Shown piece by piece: positions 4,857 through 15,031 of a DNA stretch of 58,083 bases (position 1 is the stretch's first letter; each line of letters begins with the position of its first letter). The notes under the pieces are model-generated. The model saw only the letters and a list, made by a program, of their open reading frames with translations, had not been told where the DNA came from and did no database searches. The translations under genes and the position numbers were made by a program. The stretch is from a virus. The stretch lies in the IMG/VR virus record IMGVR_UViG_3300045988_084814. One strand, 5' to 3'.

Positions 4857-4956
4857 CGGCTATATAATGCTTATTATGTGCAAGGATATAAAAAAACAAG
4901 GCTAAGAAGTAAAACGGCTATATGAGGCTGTAGCAAAGAGATGAACAGACACAAAA

Positions 4957-4987
4957 AAAGAGACTTTTTACAGTCTCTTTTCTTTTC
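4957..4987. terminator. Bidirectional terminator between convergent genes
   Basis: Stem AAAGAGACT/AGTCTCTTT, flanked by an A-run on one side and a T-run on the other. Confidence 0.7.
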
Positions 4988-5077
4988 CAAAATGTGGCTA
5001 TTAAATACAATTACTAAATATAAACTATTATTTACATCGTATTTATTTTATATTAGTTTTAACTTAATGTCAAGACC

Positions 5078-5779
5078 TTAAACGAAAAAAACTGGGTTAT
5101 CGTTATCAAAAAGGTTGCAAAAAATTTTAGTATCCTTATCAATATATCGGCATCTCACTTTATTAAACTTTCTAAATCCTTTTTTAGTATATTCATATTT
5201 TTTATTTATATTATATGATATGCTACACAAATCGTCAGGTACAAAAATCTCAGGAACATAAGCATCTTTTTTTAATATCCCTATTTCGTTCTTTTGTTGT
5301 AACTCAACAATTTCAACATCATCAACTCGTAACAAATCTTCATAACGCCCTAATGACAAAAATTTGCGTGGAAATTTCAAAGATGTATAGACCACTTCAA
5401 GGTCATCATCATCTACAGTTTGTATATAAATTTCAAGTTGTAAATTTGCTAAATAATAAAATGTTTTAGGCGATTGAACCCAGCCGGTATAACTGTTGAC
5501 GTTTTCATCTTCGACGATTACAGACCACCTTTTTTTGATTTCTTCTGTGATTGTCTTAAATTTCGCACCGCCTTGCCATTGCATTTTTAGCTCTTTATTT
5601 ATGTAACCTTTTCCCGATATAAAAAAATTCATATTGTGATATTCATGCCAGCCGCAGGCGTTATGTACCATACCTGACACTGTGGAAAATGGTGGCAAGG
5701 GCAAAATCTCAGGAGAGCAAGACAAACTTACAGGAAACCTTGCGGTTTCCATGTAAGCGTTTAATTTAACTGCTTTCAT
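5078..5779 (-). CDS. Solitary Cas5-like (RAMP) protein resembling subtype I-B Cas5
   Basis: Start is the MKAVKL ATG with SD AGAGGT. The N-terminus KAVKLNAYMETARFP...PLPPFSTVSGMVHNACG matches the Cas5 signature (PxPPxST-h-G-h). LSLGRYEDLLRVDDVEIVEL matches the Cas5 LGRxED strand. No other cas gene or CRISPR array is present in the genome. Confidence 0.55.
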   Translation of the reverse strand: MKAVKLNAYMETARFPVSLSCSPEILPLPPFSTVSGMVHNACGWHEYHNMNFFISGKGYINKELKMQWQGGAKFKTITEEIKKRWSVIVEDENVNSYTGWVQSPKTFYYLANLQLEIYIQTVDDDDLEVVYTSLKFPRKFLSLGRYEDLLRVDDVEIVELQQKNEIGILKKDAYVPEIFVPDDLCSISYNINKKYEYTKKGFRKFNKVRCRYIDKDTKIFCNLFDNDNPVFFV

Positions 5780-5789
5780 TGATTTACCT

Positions 5790-5981
5790 CTATTCTGCTT
5801 CACATTCAAAACCTAAAAGAATATCTTTATAAAGTTCTTCACTGATATTCTCTTCTAAAAGAGGTTTTCTATTCTCAAATCCAAGTTCCGCATCAAGTGA
5901 AGCGTCAATTCCCTCTAATGCTTTTTCTCTGCTAAATCCCAACTCCATAACCTCATTTAATAAATCAATAGTTTTTTTCAT
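5790..5981 (-). CDS. Small, very acidic hypothetical protein (63 aa)
   Basis: ATG with SD AAGGTG. It ends 11 nt before the Cas5-like start. D/E-rich throughout and ends in ECEAE. Confidence 0.5.
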   Translation of the reverse strand: MKKTIDLLNEVMELGFSREKALEGIDASLDAELGFENRKPLLEENISEELYKDILLGFECEAE

Positions 5982-6017
5982 AATAGTCACCTTTTAACCT
6001 TTCTTTTATTTTTTATA

Positions 6018-6046
6018 ATTATATCTTTTATAGTGATGTTTTTCAA
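6018..6046 (-). promoter_or_regulatory. Sigma-A-type promoter for the acidic protein and Cas5-like gene pair
   Basis: On the minus strand: TTGAAA, 17-nt spacer, TATAAT. Confidence 0.6.
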
Positions 6047-6217
6047 TTACCAAAAAATTATATTTCCTTTTTTGTCCACATTGTAATGCCACCATTTGCC
6101 CGACTGATACATGATACAAACATTACCGTTTTCGTCAATCCATGTTTTTTTAATTTTGCCGTGTTCCCAGTTTGATGTTTGGGAACGATGAAAATTGTAA
6201 AGTTCTTCTGCTGCCAT
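6047..6217 (-). CDS. Small hypothetical protein (56 aa)
   Basis: SD GGAGGG. Below the ORF-track cutoff. Sequence MAAEELYNF...KWWHYNVDKKGNIIFW. Confidence 0.45.
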   Translation of the reverse strand: MAAEELYNFHRSQTSNWEHGKIKKTWIDENGNVCIMYQSGKWWHYNVDKKGNIIFW

Positions 6218-6243
6218 CTTTTTGCCCTCCTAATTTTATTTTA

Positions 6244-6285
6244 GAGCAAGCCGGGGAATCGAACCCCGGAAGTGCCGACCTTGCT
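6244..6285 (-). ncRNA. tRNA-like acceptor/T-arm minihelix (no D or anticodon arm)
   Basis: Minus strand reads AGCAAGG-TCGGCACTTC-CGGGG-TTCGATT-CCCCG-GCTTGCT-C. That is 6 of 7 acceptor pairs, a 5-bp T stem and a consensus T loop. It starts 1 nt after the upstream stop codon. Confidence 0.5.
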
Positions 6286-6286
6286 A

Positions 6287-6727
6287 TTAAATTGCTTCTT
6301 TTTCTTTGCTAATTTCTGCCGCAATTATTCCCTGCTCGAGAAAGTAACGAAGTGCGCTATCGCCGAAACGCTGTATATAATATTCCGCAAGCTCCGAAGT
6401 GCTAAAAGCATCTAACGCTGTGCCGACATCGCTATATATTCCGCTATATGTTCTTCGTCTACTTGAAAGTGCCTTATCAACTGGATTTTTTAACTCTTCA
6501 TCTTTAACTCCTACAAGCCTATCAGCTCGCATTGTTCTAGTGTGTTCGTTTCCGCTCTCGTCGGAAATAATAACGCATTTAACGCTTTTTCCACTTTTTG
6601 TTAGCTCTACGCTTTTGACTGTGGAAGTGTAACCAAAATTCCAAACCGTAATCATTCCCGGCTTTAATTCTGCCGCCGGAATTGCTTTTTGCGGTGTGTG
6701 TATTCCTTGTAATTTAATTGTTCTCAT
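6287..6727 (-). CDS. Hypothetical protein
   Basis: Start placed at MRTIKL with SD GAAAGGA. The track ORF begins 12 nt upstream, inside the SD. Confidence 0.6.
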   Translation of the reverse strand: MRTIKLQGIHTPQKAIPAAELKPGMITVWNFGYTSTVKSVELTKSGKSVKCVIISDESGNEHTRTMRADRLVGVKDEELKNPVDKALSSRRRTYSGIYSDVGTALDAFSTSELAEYYIQRFGDSALRYFLEQGIIAAEISKEKEAI

Positions 6728-6750
6728 AGTATCAACCATCCTTTCATTGT

Positions 6751-6812
6751 GTGCCCTGTCTCGTCAGTGCAGGTGGGGCAATTCCTACAGACCGCCGCGT
6801 GGCGGTTTCGAC
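6751..6812 (-). ncRNA. Hammerhead ribozyme, type II topology
   Basis: Minus strand reads GUC-GAAA-CCGCC(ACGC)GGCGG-UC^UGUAGG(AAUUGCCCCA)CCUGCA-CUGACGA-GACAGGGCAC. All invariant core positions are present. Stems I and III are closed and stem II is open. Loop I UGCCC is complementary to GGGCA in the 3' tail. Confidence 0.75.
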
Positions 6813-7147
6813 TAAAAGTCAATGCTTGTATATACTTCTAATATCTCACGCCATTTGTTTTCCTTATCACAATCAAAATTAAGGTCTTTAATATGGAAAA
6901 TTGCATATTCTCCATAATTCTCTCTTAAATCTTGCAACTGATTGTACACTGTTTCAAATTCTTCTAAGTCATCAATATTGAGAATATAACGCTTGTGTTC
7001 CGGGTTGCGAATTATGTAATTTTCTTTCGCTTGAACATATGACGAAAATAATGCTTCAACTTTAACTTTGCTTTTTCTGTCATCCTGTGTTTTTCTATCA
7101 ATCATGTAAACAACTGCCCATTTCATAAAATCTGTATAACTCTTCAT
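6812..7147 (-). CDS. Hypothetical protein
   Basis: First gene of the minus-strand operon. Start placed at MKSYTD with a GGTGA SD; the track start is at 7159. Confidence 0.6.
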   Translation of the reverse strand: MKSYTDFMKWAVVYMIDRKTQDDRKSKVKVEALFSSYVQAKENYIIRNPEHKRYILNIDDLEEFETVYNQLQDLRENYGEYAIFHIKDLNFDCDKENKWREILEVYTSIDF

Positions 7148-7196
7148 ATCAATCACCATAACCTTTCTTGCTATTCGCTTTCCTTATGTTGTATAT

Positions 7197-7225
7197 ATAA
7201 TAACAAATGTCACGCACTTATGCAA
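7197..7225 (-). promoter_or_regulatory. Promoter of the minus-strand accessory operon, with the operator in its spacer
   Basis: On the minus strand: TTGCAT, 17-nt spacer, TATTAT. The spacer contains ATAAGTGCGTGA. Confidence 0.55.
7210..7221. repeat. Operator repeat TCACGCACTTAT, copy 1
   Basis: Exact 12-mer shared by four sites. Confidence 0.8.
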
Positions 7226-7244
7226 TAGTAATAATATACAAACA

Positions 7245-7256
7245 TCACGCACTTAT
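7245..7256. repeat. Operator repeat TCACGCACTTAT, copy 2
   Basis: Exact 12-mer. Confidence 0.8.
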
Positions 7257-7276
7257 TTTGTGCAATTTGTATATTG

Positions 7277-7305
7277 TTGACATTGTCACGCACTTATGAT
7301 ATTAT
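7277..7305 (+). promoter_or_regulatory. Promoter of the RHH gene, with the operator in its spacer
   Basis: TTGACA, 17-nt spacer, TATTAT. The spacer contains TCACGCACTTAT (copy 3, 7286-7297). Confidence 0.65.
7286..7297. repeat. Operator repeat TCACGCACTTAT, copy 3
   Basis: Exact 12-mer. Confidence 0.8.
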
Positions 7306-7338
7306 AATGAATAAATATAATATAAGGAGGTCTACAAA

Positions 7339-7536
7339 ATGGCAGAATTAAAAACAACTGACGCACACAGAAAAGCGGTCAGAAAGTACGAAAACAGTAA
7401 TTACAGATTGAATTTAACATTCCCGAAAGGGACAAAAGAAAGAATAGAATCATTACAGTTAAATAAAACAAATTCAGCTTTTATCAGAGATACAGTTTTG
7501 AGCAAACTTGATGAACTTGAAAAAATATTAAAATAA
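7339..7536 (+). CDS. Ribbon-helix-helix (Arc/CopG-like) DNA-binding protein
   Basis: SD AAGGAGG. 65 aa. Predicted beta strand (YRLNLTFPKG) followed by two helices (TKERIESL, NSAFIRDTVLSKLDE). Confidence 0.6.
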   Translation: MAELKTTDAHRKAVRKYENSNYRLNLTFPKGTKERIESLQLNKTNSAFIRDTVLSKLDELEKILK

Positions 7537-7550
7537 CGCACTGATTAGTA

Positions 7551-7579
7551 TTGACATTATCACGCACTTATAGTATAAT
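7551..7579 (+). promoter_or_regulatory. Consensus promoter with the operator in its spacer
   Basis: TTGACA, 17-nt spacer, TATAAT. The spacer contains TCACGCACTTAT (copy 4, 7560-7571). Confidence 0.7.
7560..7571. repeat. Operator repeat TCACGCACTTAT, copy 4
   Basis: Exact 12-mer. Confidence 0.8.
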
Positions 7580-7627
7580 GAATACATCAAATAAAGAAAG
7601 GCAGTCAATGGCTGAAAGGTGGATATT

Positions 7628-7948
7628 ATGAAAAGAGAGGACTTTAAAAAGATTATAAAGTTGCGCAGCGATTGGAAGATTGACAGACGCACAGGTGATT
7701 ATTTTTTGCCAAGCGGAGAAAAGTTGTCAGCATATATTTCTAATTTGGTTGAAAGTCAATTAGAGATTGACAATTTAGGCATTCGTGAAAATGGCGATAT
7801 ATGTTATATGAGCGGCGGCGATTGGAACACTGAAAGCAAAGAATTTGACAACTATACTCTTTTGCCAGAATTTGAAAGTAATGAGATATGCTCATACGAA
7901 GAAATGGAAAAAAGGATTAGTCGTTTGGTGCGTGAGATTGTACAGTAA
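7628..7948 (+). CDS. Hypothetical protein
   Basis: ATG with SD GAAAGGTGG. 106 aa. Confidence 0.6.
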   Translation: MKREDFKKIIKLRSDWKIDRRTGDYFLPSGEKLSAYISNLVESQLEIDNLGIRENGDICYMSGGDWNTESKEFDNYTLLPEFESNEICSYEEMEKRISRLVREIVQ

Positions 7949-7964
7949 ATAAATTAAATTTTTT

Positions 7965-7992
7965 AGCGGCTTGAAATATAGCCGCTTTTTTT
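7965..7992 (+). terminator. Rho-independent terminator
   Basis: Stem AGCGGCT/AGCCGCT followed by TTTTTT. Confidence 0.8.
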
Positions 7993-8613
7993 AATACAAT
8001 CATATTTTATAATAATACAGAAAATTGAGTTACGGATAGGGTATATGTCATTACTCAAAAATCTGTATAAATCTAGTCTAGTTTCTGTATAATTTTACAA
8101 ACACGAACTCGAATTTCTGTATATTTTTAAAAACAGCATTTTTGTATTGCATTTTTAACAAGTAAATAGTGGTCCATATTATTTTATTTTGTGCAGTTGT
8201 CACAAATATTATGCTATATTTATACATATTTTCGAGTTTTTCGATACACCATACAAGCATCTGTTTCTGTTTACTGTTATATCAAAGACTTTAACTCTTA
8301 GATAAAACTATAGTATTAGCCACTAAAGTATATTAAGCATAAATATATATATAAATACAGCCAGTACAGTATATTATAAATATATATACTACACTATACA
8401 CATATATAGCCAGTATGTAGATTATATATAAAGCAAAAAAACATATTTAGGGTATTGACAGTAGTTATATTTAGCTGTATAGTAGATGCATAAATTAAAT
8501 AACTTAGCTGTTTAGCACTTGTAAGAGATATATAAACACATGTATAGAGTATGTGTAGAATGTATATCTTTGCAGGTGCTTTTTATTTATATAACAATAC
8601 TGGAGGTGAGAAG
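7993..8613. repeat. AT-rich non-coding region with short iterated motifs (candidate pac site or origin)
   Basis: About 620 bp with no credible ORF. TCTGTATA occurs at 8062, 8084 and 8116, with an inverted copy at 8016. AGCCAGTA occurs at 8359 and 8408. There are many TATATA runs. Confidence 0.5.
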
Positions 8614-9267
8614 ATGGCAGATTATGAAGATGTTGAAGTATTCGACAACGCTATAGAGACATATATACAAGAATACTGTGACCAATGCCATCCGCCTATC
8701 GAGGATTTAAGTAAAGAACCACAGAACAAATGGAGCGCAGCGTTGATGTATGTTTATAACCATATGTTCAGAGGTACGGATAAATTAAAACTAGATAGAC
8801 CATACGAACAGTATAACAATCCTGAATTACCAAGATTTAATACTACTAACTGTAACGCTTATGATATAGACAAAATAAATGCTGTATGTGATATATATAT
8901 ATATTTATGTGGTATGTATGACAAAGAGGTTAGTATATCAGGATTTAGTAAATTAACTGGTATTGATTATAGCACTATATGTATATGGAATAGCAGAAAA
9001 GATAATGATGAACTAAGTTATCGGCGTTTCAAGGTTTATCAAAAATTGCATGACGAAAGAGAAGAGAGCTTGTGCAATAAGCTGATTACCGGTGGCAAGA
9101 ATCAGGTCGGTATTATTGCTATCTTGAATAGACATTACGGATATGCTTCACCATATACAGCAGACAGCAAGAAGCAAGTCGAACAAAAGACAGCAGCAGA
9201 GCTCCCAAGACTTGATACAGCACCACAACATGTAGCGGCTGTTGAGGATAAGAACAACAAGATATAG
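8614..9267 (+). CDS. Putative small terminase subunit / HTH DNA-binding protein
   Basis: SD GGAGGTGA. An HTH-like segment (SGFSKLTGIDYSTICIW) and GGKNQVGIIAILNRHYGY resemble TerS proteins. Not adjacent to TerL. Confidence 0.4.
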   Translation: MADYEDVEVFDNAIETYIQEYCDQCHPPIEDLSKEPQNKWSAALMYVYNHMFRGTDKLKLDRPYEQYNNPELPRFNTTNCNAYDIDKINAVCDIYIYLCGMYDKEVSISGFSKLTGIDYSTICIWNSRKDNDELSYRRFKVYQKLHDEREESLCNKLITGGKNQVGIIAILNRHYGYASPYTADSKKQVEQKTAAELPRLDTAPQHVAAVEDKNNKI

Positions 9268-10385: not shown

Positions 10386-10457
10386 TGGGGTATCGCCAAG
10401 AGGTTAAGGCATAGCACTTTGACTGCTACATCATGGGTTCAAATCCCATTACCCCAG
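10386..10457 (+). tRNA. tRNA-Gln (anticodon UUG)
   Basis: Cloverleaf: acceptor TGGGGTA/TACCCCA, anticodon stem TAGCA/TGCTA with loop CTTTGAC, T arm ATGGG-TTCAAAT-CCCAT. No encoded CCA. Confidence 0.85.
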
Positions 10458-10711
10458 TTTTGCAAGATGCCATCTTTGTTTTTCTTCTTGCAAAATCGCG
10501 GAGAAAAACTCCTTTCCCACACTAGCGGAATGCTGTTAAGAGCCATCGCACGGCTCGGTGTGGTTGTTCGGGTGTCTATCCCACGATGCCCGAACTTACA
10601 TACTTTTTCCGTACTGGACTAATGTAGTTCCATTACAACTTTCACACCCACCCATAACACACAGGTGCTTGCATACCATCTTAAAAGCCTATACAGAGGT
10701 GTATGCAACTT
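10458..10711 (+). other. Highly structured 254-nt spacer between the two tRNAs (possible ncRNA)
   Basis: Perfect 10-bp hairpin TTTTGCAAGA/TCTTGCAAAA. Further stems: GAGCC/GGCTC, GTTCGGG/CCCGAAC and TTGCATA/TATGCAA. No credible ORF. Confidence 0.35.
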
Positions 10712-10783
10712 TGGCATATAGTTCAGTGGTAGAACGCCTGACTGTTAATCAGGATGTCGCAGGTTCGATACCTGCTATGCCAG
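10712..10783 (+). tRNA. tRNA-Asn (anticodon GUU)
   Basis: Acceptor TGGCATA/TATGCCA, D arm AGTTCAGTGGTAGAAC, anticodon stem CCTGA/TCAGG with loop CTGTTAA, T arm GCAGG-TTCGATA-CCTGC. Confidence 0.9.
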
Positions 10784-10891
10784 TTATGTCAACACTTGTG
10801 CAGAAACCAATGTCGGCAATGGAAGAACAGAAACTAGCTGTTGACATTATTAAAAAATGCCCACGCAAAAATACTAGTTACGACGCGGGTG

Positions 10892-11050: not shown

Positions 11051-11117
11051 TATCCTCAAAACTATCGAGGATAGCTGATAAACAGGCTTTTTAAAGTTCC
11101 TCATGACAATATGAAGA

Positions 11118-11164
11118 AGAGTAGACAGATGGTGTTTTATTCGGTTCGATTCCGGACTACTCTT
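11118..11164 (+). ncRNA. Second tRNA-like acceptor/T-arm minihelix
   Basis: AGAGTAG-(15 nt)-TTCGG-TTCGATT-CCGGA-CTACTCT-T. Perfect 7-bp acceptor stem and a consensus T loop. Confidence 0.45.
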
Positions 11165-11203
11165 TACTAAATAAACTTTAAAATATTAGAAAAGGAGTAA
11201 ACA

Positions 11204-13822: not shown

Positions 13823-15031
13823 ATGGCTGATTTGAAAATATTTACAGAAAATATAGAACATGAAGCATTAAATCAGATATATACACTTGTAAAACAGCCA
13901 GCATTTTCGGATTGCAAGATAAGAATTATGCCAGATGTTCATGCAGGAGCAGGGTGTGTTATAGGGTTTACTGCTGATTTAGGAGAAAAAGTAATACCGA
14001 ACATTGTTGGAGTTGACATAGGCTGTGGGATGCTTACTACAAACCTGGGGAATATTGATATTGATTTTGAGAAGCTAGATAACATCATTAGAGAATATGT
14101 TCCAAGTGGTAGAAAAGTTCATGAAGAAGAAAACTCATCTGTCGCAAGCGATATTATTGAAAAATTGAATTGCAAGGAACAGTTGAAAAATATAAATTGG
14201 TTGAAAAGAAGTTGTGGCACGCTGGGAGGCGGCAATCATTTTATCGAAGTTGATAACGATAGCAATAATAATAAATATCTTATTATTCATTCGGGAAGCA
14301 GGAATGTCGGAAAGCAAGTTGCAGAAATATATCAGCAAATGGCGATTGACGATATTTCGGGAAAATCAAACTTTAAACAAGATAGTAAGAAATTGATTGC
14401 TGAATACAAAAAATGCAAAAGAGAAAGAGAAATTAGCAAGGCTATCAAAGAATTAAAGCAGTCCTACGAAGCAAATACAACTAAAATCCCTAGAGAGTTA
14501 TCATATCTTGTTGGAAAACATAGAGAAATGTATTTGCACGATATGAAATTATGTCAAGAGTTTGCGAAAATTAACAGAAGAGCCATTCAGAGCATTATTT
14601 GTTACTATATGGGCTGGAAAGTTACAAAAGAAACGGAACGATTTCAAACAATTCACAACTACATTGAACACGATACAAATATTGTTCGTAAAGGTGCTAT
14701 TTCTGCAAAAACAGGCGAAAAGGTACTAATACCAATAAACATGCGTGACGGTTGCATTTTGGGAATTGGCAAAGGAAATGAAGATTGGAATTATTCAGCA
14801 CCGCATGGAGCAGGGCGAACAATGAGCAGGTCAAAAGCAAAAGAAAGCATTTTGCTAGAAGAGTATCAAAAAGCAATGGATGGAATATTTACAACATCTG
14901 TAAATACATCCACGATTGATGAAAGTCCTATGGCATATAAAACAATGGATGAAATAATTGGAAATATAAAAGATACTGTTGAAATAGTTGACATTATAAA
15001 ACCGATTTACAATTTCAAAGCAAACGAATAA
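13823..15031 (+). CDS. rtcB: RtcB RNA ligase (3'-phosphate/5'-hydroxyl)
   Basis: Motifs present: MPDVHAGAGCVIG, GVDIGCGM, GGGNHFIE, HSGSRNVG, APHGAGR. 402 aa. Confidence 0.9.
   Translation: MADLKIFTENIEHEALNQIYTLVKQPAFSDCKIRIMPDVHAGAGCVIGFTADLGEKVIPNIVGVDIGCGMLTTNLGNIDIDFEKLDNIIREYVPSGRKVHEEENSSVASDIIEKLNCKEQLKNINWLKRSCGTLGGGNHFIEVDNDSNNNKYLIIHSGSRNVGKQVAEIYQQMAIDDISGKSNFKQDSKKLIAEYKKCKREREISKAIKELKQSYEANTTKIPRELSYLVGKHREMYLHDMKLCQEFAKINRRAIQSIICYYMGWKVTKETERFQTIHNYIEHDTNIVRKGAISAKTGEKVLIPINMRDGCILGIGKGNEDWNYSAPHGAGRTMSRSKAKESILLEEYQKAMDGIFTTSVNTSTIDESPMAYKTMDEIIGNIKDTVEIVDIIKPIYNFKANE

Follow-up and report, generated by a model that had tools for sequence, protein, structure and literature searches.

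Natural type II hammerhead ribozymes were described by Perreault et al. 2011 (PMC3088659), with a pseudoknot of at least 4 base pairs (bp) between loop I and the 3′ tail in the majority of type II members and a stem II that can be reduced to just 1-2 bp. In prophages, these hammerheads occur in clusters on either side of single genes, which ‘are not constant’, and polycistronic constructs of about 2 kilobases (kb) from Clostridium scindens and others cleave in vitro (PMC3088659). The same work raised the idea that processing cuts long phage transcripts into gene-length mRNAs (PMC3088659). The stretch of DNA analysed here (the window) is one strand, 58,083 nucleotides (nt) long, of the IMG/VR virus record IMGVR_UViG_3300045988_084814; a reading of its letters predicts a type II hammerhead ribozyme of 62 nt on the minus strand, at 6751-6812. 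The architecture and genomic setting of this element are those already described by Perreault et al. 2011, with which it agrees in every tested respect except for a sub-threshold Rfam score. The preferred reading, which is given a probability of roughly 0.8, is that a functional type II hammerhead splits two cistrons of a variable accessory operon by co-transcriptional self-cleavage in a temperate siphophage, probably of Lachnospiraceae.

With the hammerheads of Perreault et al. 2011 the element shares the core, the permutation with a short open stem II and the pseudoknot, as well as a setting in polycistronic units of prophages, between small, variable genes that are mostly hypothetical, frequently with two or three ribozymes per operon. 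It differs in belonging to a subtype (type A below) that lies under the Rfam gathering score and in which most copies have C instead of U at position 4 (U4C), and in that the same operons also hold tRNA-like minihelices, which are not described in that paper. Cleavage in vivo has been detected by cyPhyRNA-seq for type II hammerheads located beside phage-like genes of Desulfovibrio vulgaris, whose products with a 2′,3′-cyclic phosphate and a 5′-hydroxyl (5′-OH) are found in cellular RNA (Olzog et al. 2021, PMC8782182). In the haloviruses HF1 and HF2, the HHphage variant lies upstream of an early helicase gene, and a mapped 5′ end supports its cleavage in vivo (PMC3088659; PMC7230728). The window element resembles the D. 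vulgaris ribozymes in its position next to hypothetical or phage-derived genes, and that of HF1/HF2 in being a virus hammerhead placed a few nucleotides before a start codon in a polycistronic transcript (an early one in HF1/HF2), in company with RtcB and tRNA-like sequences. It differs from the former in host phylum and from the latter, an archaeal virus element with variant core and architecture, in its canonical core, and from both in being known from sequence alone. Self-cleavage of an mRNA also decides the fate of a downstream coding RNA through its 5′-OH end in another Firmicute, Bacillus subtilis, where the glmS ribozyme is metabolite-dependent and located in the 5′ untranslated region, and where RNase J1 reportedly degrades the 5′-OH product. 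In contrast, the window hammerhead has no known ligand, lies between cistrons and would place its 5′-OH on the base-paired first nucleotide of a hairpin.

The minus-strand RNA of 6812 to 6751 is 5′-GUC GAAA CCGCC ACGC GGCGG UC UGUAGG AAUUGCCCCA CCUGCA CUGACGA GAC A GGGCA C-3′; the unbroken minus-strand letters of 6812-6751 are GUCGAAACCGCCACGCGGCGGUCUGUAGGAAUUGCCCCACCUGCACUGACGAGACAGGGCAC. Its parts are the following.

6751-6812, minus strand: type II hammerhead including the 3′ pseudoknot tail (sequence; RF02276; descriptor; own covariance model)
6812-6810, minus strand: 5′ strand of stem II, G11.3 U11.2 C11.1 (GUC) (sequence)
6809-6807, minus strand: core strand G12 A13 A14 (sequence; same in 67-68 of 68 distinct relatives)
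6806 / 6791, minus strand: A15.1 / U16.1 pair (sequence)
6791-6806, minus strand: stem III hairpin, A15.1-CCGCC / ACGC loop / GGCGG-U16.1 (sequence, covariation)
6790, minus strand: C17, cleavage-site nucleotide (sequence)
6789, minus strand: U1.1 (sequence)
6768-6789, minus strand: stem I hairpin, UGUAGG / 10-nt loop / CCUGCA (sequence, covariation)
6761-6767, minus strand: core strand C3-A9, CUGACGA (sequence)
6760-6758, minus strand: 3′ strand of stem II, G10.1 A10.2 C10.3 (GAC) (sequence)
6752-6756, minus strand: 3′ tail GGGCA, pseudoknot strand (sequence, covariation)

The hammerhead core is complete, with CUGACGA, GAA, the A6806:U6791 pair, C6790 (not G) at the cleavage site and the G6760:C6810 pair, and all core columns are matched in the Rfam alignment. 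Core and helices are canonical and the junctions contain zero spare nucleotides; U4 has its canonical identity in this copy, while C7 is unusual. Along the RNA, the 5′ strand of stem II is followed by GAAA, the stem III hairpin, UC, the stem I hairpin, CUGACGA and the 3′ strand of stem II. Stems I and III are capped by loops and stem II is open at the 5′ and 3′ ends of the motif, which is the type II permutation. Stem III has 6 bp, counting 15.1:16.1, and its loop at 6800-6797; stem I has 6 bp as well (6789-6784 with 6773-6768, one of them a U.G pair), and loop I spans 6783-6774. The pseudoknot comprises 5 bp between UGCCC of loop I (6780-6776) and the tail GGGCA (6756-6752), with a duplex energy of -7.5 kcal/mol. 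The scissile bond is predicted between C6790 and U6789.

Topology, intact core and minus-strand sequence are exactly as the first-pass annotation of this DNA had written them, on the evidence of the sequence, the full-length Rfam match and the covariation in relatives, and the cleavage position it predicted, 6790/6789, matches the C17/U1.1 numbering. It had also described the tail as complementary to loop I, which is correct, and as located immediately 3′ of stem II, which is not, since the single nucleotide A6757 lies between stem II and the pseudoknot strand.

Comparison of 68 distinct homologous copies supports all helices. Standard pairs fill 99.1% of helix cells, against 25-50% after sliding the 3′ partners by one to three columns, and compensatory double changes occur at 11 of 15 pairs; none of 500 shuffles reaches any of the five measures. 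In stem III, four of six pairs show compensatory changes and 99.8% of cells are paired; in stem I, all six pairs do, with 98.8% of cells paired. The alignment was fitted to the nested structure of the model, which biases the counts for the stems towards that model, whereas the pseudoknot lies outside it. Over the four pseudoknot pairs scored, pairing amounts to 84.5%, and three pairs have compensatory switches (G-C 33 / C-G 23 / A-U 1; U-A 31 / C-G 23; one C-G among 54 G-C). The unpaired cells come from type C copies, whose tail is one nucleotide shorter and shifts the register, and from a few copies without a tail. Covariation in all three helices and in the pseudoknot thus bears out the stems and the loop I/tail interaction drawn in the first-pass annotation. 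The core behaves differently: G5, A6, A9, A13, A15.1, U16.1, C17 and G10.1 are identical in 68 of 68 copies and C3, G8, G12, A14 and C11.1 in 67, while U4 is replaced by C in 20 (CCGAUGA versus CUGAUGA). An invariant core amid freely covarying stems is the signature of a ribozyme, unlike that of a generic hairpin, and on this comparative evidence seems hard to explain except by catalysis.

The element lies between two genes of the same strand, and the genes flanking such elements are not conserved, as in the prophage arrangement. The two flanking cistrons are:

6812-7159, minus strand: upstream cistron of 115 amino acids (aa), or 111 aa from ATG 7147 (open reading frame list; homologues in 44 viral contigs)
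6287-6739, minus strand: downstream cistron of 150 aa, or 146 aa from ATG 6727 (open reading frame list; homologues in 40 viral contigs)

Neither of them has a Pfam, PHROG or NCBIfam match that would indicate a function. The upstream TAG stop codon occupies 6814-6812 and stem II starts at its G, in agreement with the earlier claim of an intercistronic element beginning inside that codon. The distance to the Shine-Dalgarno sequence had been put at 15 nt and is shorter, about 5 nt, with GAAAGGA at 6745-6739; from the end of the element it is 11 nt to ATG 6739 and 23 nt to ATG 6727, and the spacer between the cistrons measures 72-84 nt. Both genes belong to an inverted minus-strand block of 2.3 kb, from 7159 to 5078, in a genome where nearly all other genes are on the plus strand. 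An intrinsic-terminator-like hairpin with a T run at 4953-4984 on the minus strand (terminator scan) is the likely end of the transcription unit. No terminator-like site is found on the minus strand between the divergent promoter region (about 7200-7340) and 4984, so co-transcription of the two cistrons is likely.

Over 100 contigs of related phages contain homologous elements, which without exception lie on the strand of the operon. A first set of 84 loci in IMG/VR viral contigs, mostly phage contigs of 50-60 kb, was found via the two flanking proteins, and an own covariance model was built from 14 diverse hammerhead copies. These loci contain 90 hammerheads, all full-length and all on the strand of the flanking genes, and many of the loci have two or three. 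A second set took 10 kb on either side of the RNA ligase gene rtcB in 80 contigs, an anchor unrelated to the hammerhead flanks. Its 58 hammerheads all share the arrangement seen in the window: they lie upstream of rtcB, at a distance of 4.3-9.8 kb, and on the other strand. Upstream sequence of 9 kb or more is available for 49 loci, of which 33 carry hammerheads (18 have one, nine have two and six have three), while the two genes flanking the window copy have homologues in no more than 4 and 0 of the 80 loci. Across the relatives, the ribozymes are thus retained more steadily than the genes on either side. All 148 matches (90 + 58) are on the operon strand. Stem II begins with the last letter of the upstream stop codon (UAG) in 104 of them and directly after that codon (UAA-G) in 25, 129 together, and in most the next open reading frame starts within 20 nt of the 3′ end of the hammerhead.

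By sequence, these hammerheads form three or more types, and one junction, with its 3′ flank unchanged, can hold different types in different relatives.

Type A (window-like): stem II GUC/GAC, with a U-A pair in stem II; no extra U after A9; loop UGCCC, tail GGGCA
Type B: stem II GCC/GGC; an extra U after A9; loop GGUCU, tail AGACC
Type C: extended stem I; loop UGC or GGC, tail GCA or GCC

Against Rfam Hammerhead_II, the type B copies that relatives have at this junction reach 52-68 bits and clearly exceed its threshold, whereas types A and C are not reported at the Hammerhead_II gathering threshold. With type B neighbours above the threshold and type A below, the window copy is a divergent subtype of a recognised family. 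The exact type A pattern is found in at least 120 viral contigs of IMG/VR. The analysis thus adds a well-supported and very abundant lineage of gut-phage type II hammerheads, and because the default Rfam threshold misses it, censuses of phage ribozymes undercount type II hammerheads. Truncated or decayed hammerheads also occur in related loci (for example L222 3248-3319, L202 539-615 and L194 1323-1395), in which the 5′ half, consisting of the stem II strand, GAAA, stem III and stem I, is joined to unrelated sequence that replaces CUGANGA. Together with the exchange of types between identical flanks, these copies suggest recombination in or at the ribozymes during the shuffling of gene cassettes.

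The motif is rare by chance. An own descriptor, which requires in this order GAAA, a stem III with 4 bp or more, UH, a stem I with 4 bp or more, CUGANGA and a stem II with 2 bp or more, finds one site in the window, with stems of 6, 6 and 3 bp, versus 0.02 per shuffled window. In a sensitive scan of 251 nt, RF02276 (Hammerhead_II) matches the window copy over its full length (1-66/66) with 33.2 bits and an expect value (E) of 2.7e-5, as the sole match; the same match has E=2.7e-4 in a 2.5-kb search, and since E is linear in searched length, extrapolation gives about 6e-3 for the whole window. The own covariance model gives the copy 74 bits as the sole match in the window, a filter-free search with it finds no second hammerhead in the whole window, and a permissive Rfam scan finds no other ribozymes in 4900-7400. 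The G+C content of the element is 64.5%, versus 36.3% for the genome. Folded alone, the 62 nt reach a minimum energy of -19.6 kcal/mol in a structure that includes all three helices; for the hammerhead secondary structure by itself the value is -17.6 kcal/mol, to which the pseudoknot adds about -7.5. Taken with its flanks (76 nt), the stretch has a fold z-score of -0.96, which is not significant, and the minimum-energy fold favours the pseudoknot helix over stem I. Such an uninformative single-sequence fold is what one would expect for a small pseudoknotted ribozyme in its flanks.

The mechanism proposed for the element begins with transcription of the minus strand, during which stem III would fold first, then stem I, with stem II closing last, and the pseudoknot between loop I and the 3′ tail would keep stems I and II parallel. 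The core would catalyse the attack of the 2′-OH of C17 on the phosphate between 6790 and 6789. Hammerhead cleavage takes place 3′ of C17 and leaves a 2′,3′-cyclic phosphate and a 5′-OH. The polycistronic mRNA would accordingly come apart into an upstream piece, ending with the G+C-rich stem III hairpin and UC and carrying the 2′,3′-cyclic phosphate on C17, and a downstream piece, starting with a 5′-OH on the paired U1.1 at the foot of stem I, some 45 nt ahead of the Shine-Dalgarno sequence. Decay and expression of the two cistrons would then be uncoupled. In Firmicutes, the 5′-end-dependent RNases are RNase J and RNase Y. Given their terminal hairpins and atypical end chemistry, the pieces would probably be poor substrates for enzymes of this kind and for 3′ exonucleases.

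Several observations weigh against this reading. The support for self-cleavage of the window copy is of a sequence-based and comparative kind. The precedent of glmS implies that cleavage could destabilise the downstream cistron rather than stabilise it, the promoter of the minus-strand operon is not confidently located by the promoter scan, and stem II has just 3 bp. A default Rfam scan of the whole window at gathering thresholds returns two tRNAs only and no hammerhead, and the window copy, with 33.2 bits, misses the gathering score of 37 bits by 3.8 bits. The first-pass annotation had called for this covariance-model search and counted the lack of a significant match as a refutation; the match is significant by its E, while its shortfall from the gathering score leaves that refutation half realised in a narrow sense. 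The shortfall reflects the divergence of the subtype in stem II and tail, and no defining structural feature is missing. The majority of type A copies, 87 of 119 among the IMG/VR matches listed, carry U4C, and this too weighs against the preferred reading. U4C is known as a natural variant that is less active and cleaves slowly in vitro but supports viroid infectivity in vivo (PMC3088659). Its prevalence, combined with this lowered activity, indicates that the lineage evidently does not need fast cleavage, and some copies may have a different role.

The U4C copies keep their helices and retain the compensatory stem III variants CCGCC/GGCGG, GGCGG/CCGCC and GGUGG/CCACC, which indicates that they are under structural selection. 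Among the loci concerned are L001, L006, L011, L015, L023, L034, L038, L041, L045, L048-L051 and L054; type A loci are L245-L363. This pattern suggests selection for slow or tuned cleavage in the U4C copies, and their majority argues for tuned over maximal cleavage. The window copy itself belongs to the minority of type A with a canonical U4.

Other explanations have to be compared with the splitting of two cistrons by self-cleavage. One involves the RNA ligase gene of the phage:

13823-15031, plus strand: RtcB RNA ligase gene (Pfam PF01139, E=6.7e-58; tblastn to phage rtcB genes)

RtcB joins 2′,3′-cyclic-phosphate and 5′-OH ends, the kind made by a hammerhead. The hammerhead could therefore work with the phage RtcB, its products being religated in a reversible or regulated cleavage or, in relatives whose single genes are flanked by two or three hammerheads, an excised cistron RNA being circularised. 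The gene is present in at least 201 related viral contigs, with 93-99% identity in the best 80, and is a conserved core gene of the phage group; in 15 of the 49 RtcB-anchored loci, two or three hammerheads lie in the divergent operon. Hammerhead, RtcB and tRNA-like sequences are also combined in the HF1 group of haloviruses (PMC7230728), and RtcB-type circularisation of ribozyme-made ends is established for animal retrozymes (PMC7229834). Against this, the single hammerhead of the window yields no fragment with both ends made by a ribozyme, and 16 of the 49 loci have no hammerhead within 10 kb, so RtcB is independent of hammerheads. Repair of tRNAs cut by host anticodon nucleases is a simpler, conventional role for a phage RtcB, and this phage has two tRNA genes. 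Spliced or circular products of clustered prophage hammerheads have been sought and none found (Perreault et al. 2011, PMC3088659). A functional link between RtcB and the hammerhead is therefore a low-probability possibility, and the reading as a whole is unlikely.

Another explanation makes the element chiefly a structural or genomic module and not an active ribozyme, either a decayed or slow hammerhead that serves as a pair of stabilising hairpins or a conserved recombination boundary of gene cassettes. The U4C majority, a few relatives with other core lesions (G12A, G8A, C3U), the truncated copies without the CUGANGA half, the presence of types A, B and C at the same junction with identical 3′ flanks and the persistence of hammerheads beyond their flanking genes are all consistent with it. 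It accounts poorly for at least 11 catalytic positions that stay near-invariant across types with fully changed stems, none of which a hairpin or a recombination site needs, and for the fully canonical core of the window copy; U4C hammerheads are, besides, active enough in vivo to sustain a viroid (PMC3088659). This makes the module quite improbable. That the motif arose by chance, or that it is simply the hairpin of an ordinary terminator or attenuator of transcription, as the G+C-rich stem III, the unremarkable z-score and the silence of Rfam at its gathering threshold might have it, is hardly credible and is rejected on the rarity of the descriptor, on conservation, covariation (including the pseudoknot) and strand specificity across more than 100 contigs, and on a hairpin that has no T run after it and is not called by the terminator scan.

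Self-cleavage between cistrons being retained as the preferred reading, the locus sharpens a question that has been open since 2011, namely of what use intercistronic ribozymes are to phages: here they outlast the genes they separate, are fused to stop codons and stand just before ribosome-binding sites.

The window is the genome of a temperate siphovirus-like phage that encodes a large serine recombinase, an SPP1-type portal and a capsid protein E and has an open reading frame of 1854 aa in the place of the tape-measure gene. Among 50,697 GenBank phage records, megablast with 5000-9000 finds no annotated close relative, and the GTDB species genomes contain no relative of the 150-aa flanking protein. 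The exact type A pattern occurs in seven GTDB genome contigs, some of them of 91 and 141 kb, most of which are labelled Lachnospiraceae, Roseburia, Jutongia or Eubacteriales. The host is thus probably a member of the Lachnospiraceae, an assignment that is only moderately secure as the labels come from bins of metagenome-assembled genomes. Clostridium scindens is a Lachnospiraceae species, so one of the hammerhead constructs already tested in vitro comes from the same bacterial family as the probable host.

Further RNA features of the window are two tRNA genes, which lie a few kb upstream of rtcB, and two tRNA-like minihelices.

10386-10457 and 10711-10784, plus strand: two tRNA genes, Gln-UUG and Asn-GUU (Rfam scan, ARAGORN)
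11116-11165, plus strand: second tRNA-like minihelix, following the tRNA genes (sequence)
6245-6285, minus strand: tRNA-like minihelix in the next intercistronic gap of the hammerhead operon (sequence)

The minihelix at 6245-6285 combines an acceptor stem, AGCAAG/CUUGCU, with a T arm, CCGGGG-UUCGAUU-CCCCGG, and a short GG-containing linker, without a D or anticodon arm. It has weak matches to mascRNA and the tmRNA T arm; such minihelices are called neither by ARAGORN nor by Rfam. In relatives it is conserved after the same stop codon, and minihelices with several stem variants are found directly after stop codons (for example L001 3443-3483, L019 4094-4132 and L056 3785-3832). A minihelix descriptor shows a strand bias of 66:2 in related operon loci, against 1:1 in a shuffle. 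By their sequence, these elements may be processing sites for RNase P and RNase Z and thus a second kind of cistron separator. In the literature searched, no description of minihelices in hammerhead operons was found, and nothing specific on gut-phage hammerheads or on tRNA-like elements near hammerheads.

Taken further, the minihelices suggest an RNA-processing kit in which the hypervariable accessory operons of this Lachnospiraceae phage group would be divided, one cistron after another, by two exchangeable modules, namely hammerheads, many of them tuned by U4C, and minihelices cut by host RNase P and RNase Z, with the conserved RtcB acting on the hammerhead ends. The ligase might, for instance, reseal the transcript or, in relatives where paired hammerheads cut out the RNA of a single gene, close that RNA into a circle. 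This broader scheme is speculative and improbable as a whole, but minihelices and phage RtcB together offer testable hypotheses on RNA processing at the level of the cistron in temperate phages of Clostridia, and the minihelices, the U4C majority and the co-occurrence of RtcB are the parts that deserve a further look.

The remaining observations concern the surroundings of the operon. Three direct repeats, ATAAGTGCGTGA(C/T), at 7215-7300 in the divergent promoter region precede a plus-strand gene of 65 aa (7339-7536), and the ATAAGTGCGTGA repeats are probably operator sites. The gene matches phrog_31631, of unknown function, and its product looks like a regulator of the ribbon-helix-helix type, as judged from its sequence. 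Inside the minus-strand block, a strong sigma-70-like promoter at 6018-6046 on the minus strand (TTGAAA-17-TATAAT, 11/12) lies upstream of genes for a 66-aa protein and a Cas5-like protein, and given this internal promoter the block may comprise two transcription units.

5078-5809, minus strand: orphan Cas5-like protein, last gene of the block (NCBIfam TIGR01895, weak Pfam Cas_Cas5d)

The match to TIGR01895 (type I-B Cas5b) is near full length, with E=1.9e-19 and 70 bits, below the cut-off of 96.7. No sequence match to the protein is found in the PDB, and among the neighbouring open reading frames examined, within a window that was not screened as a whole, no other cas genes were noticed. Homologues with about 39% identity are present in 19 related loci, mostly on the opposite strand, and the Cas5-like protein could act as an anti-CRISPR decoy.

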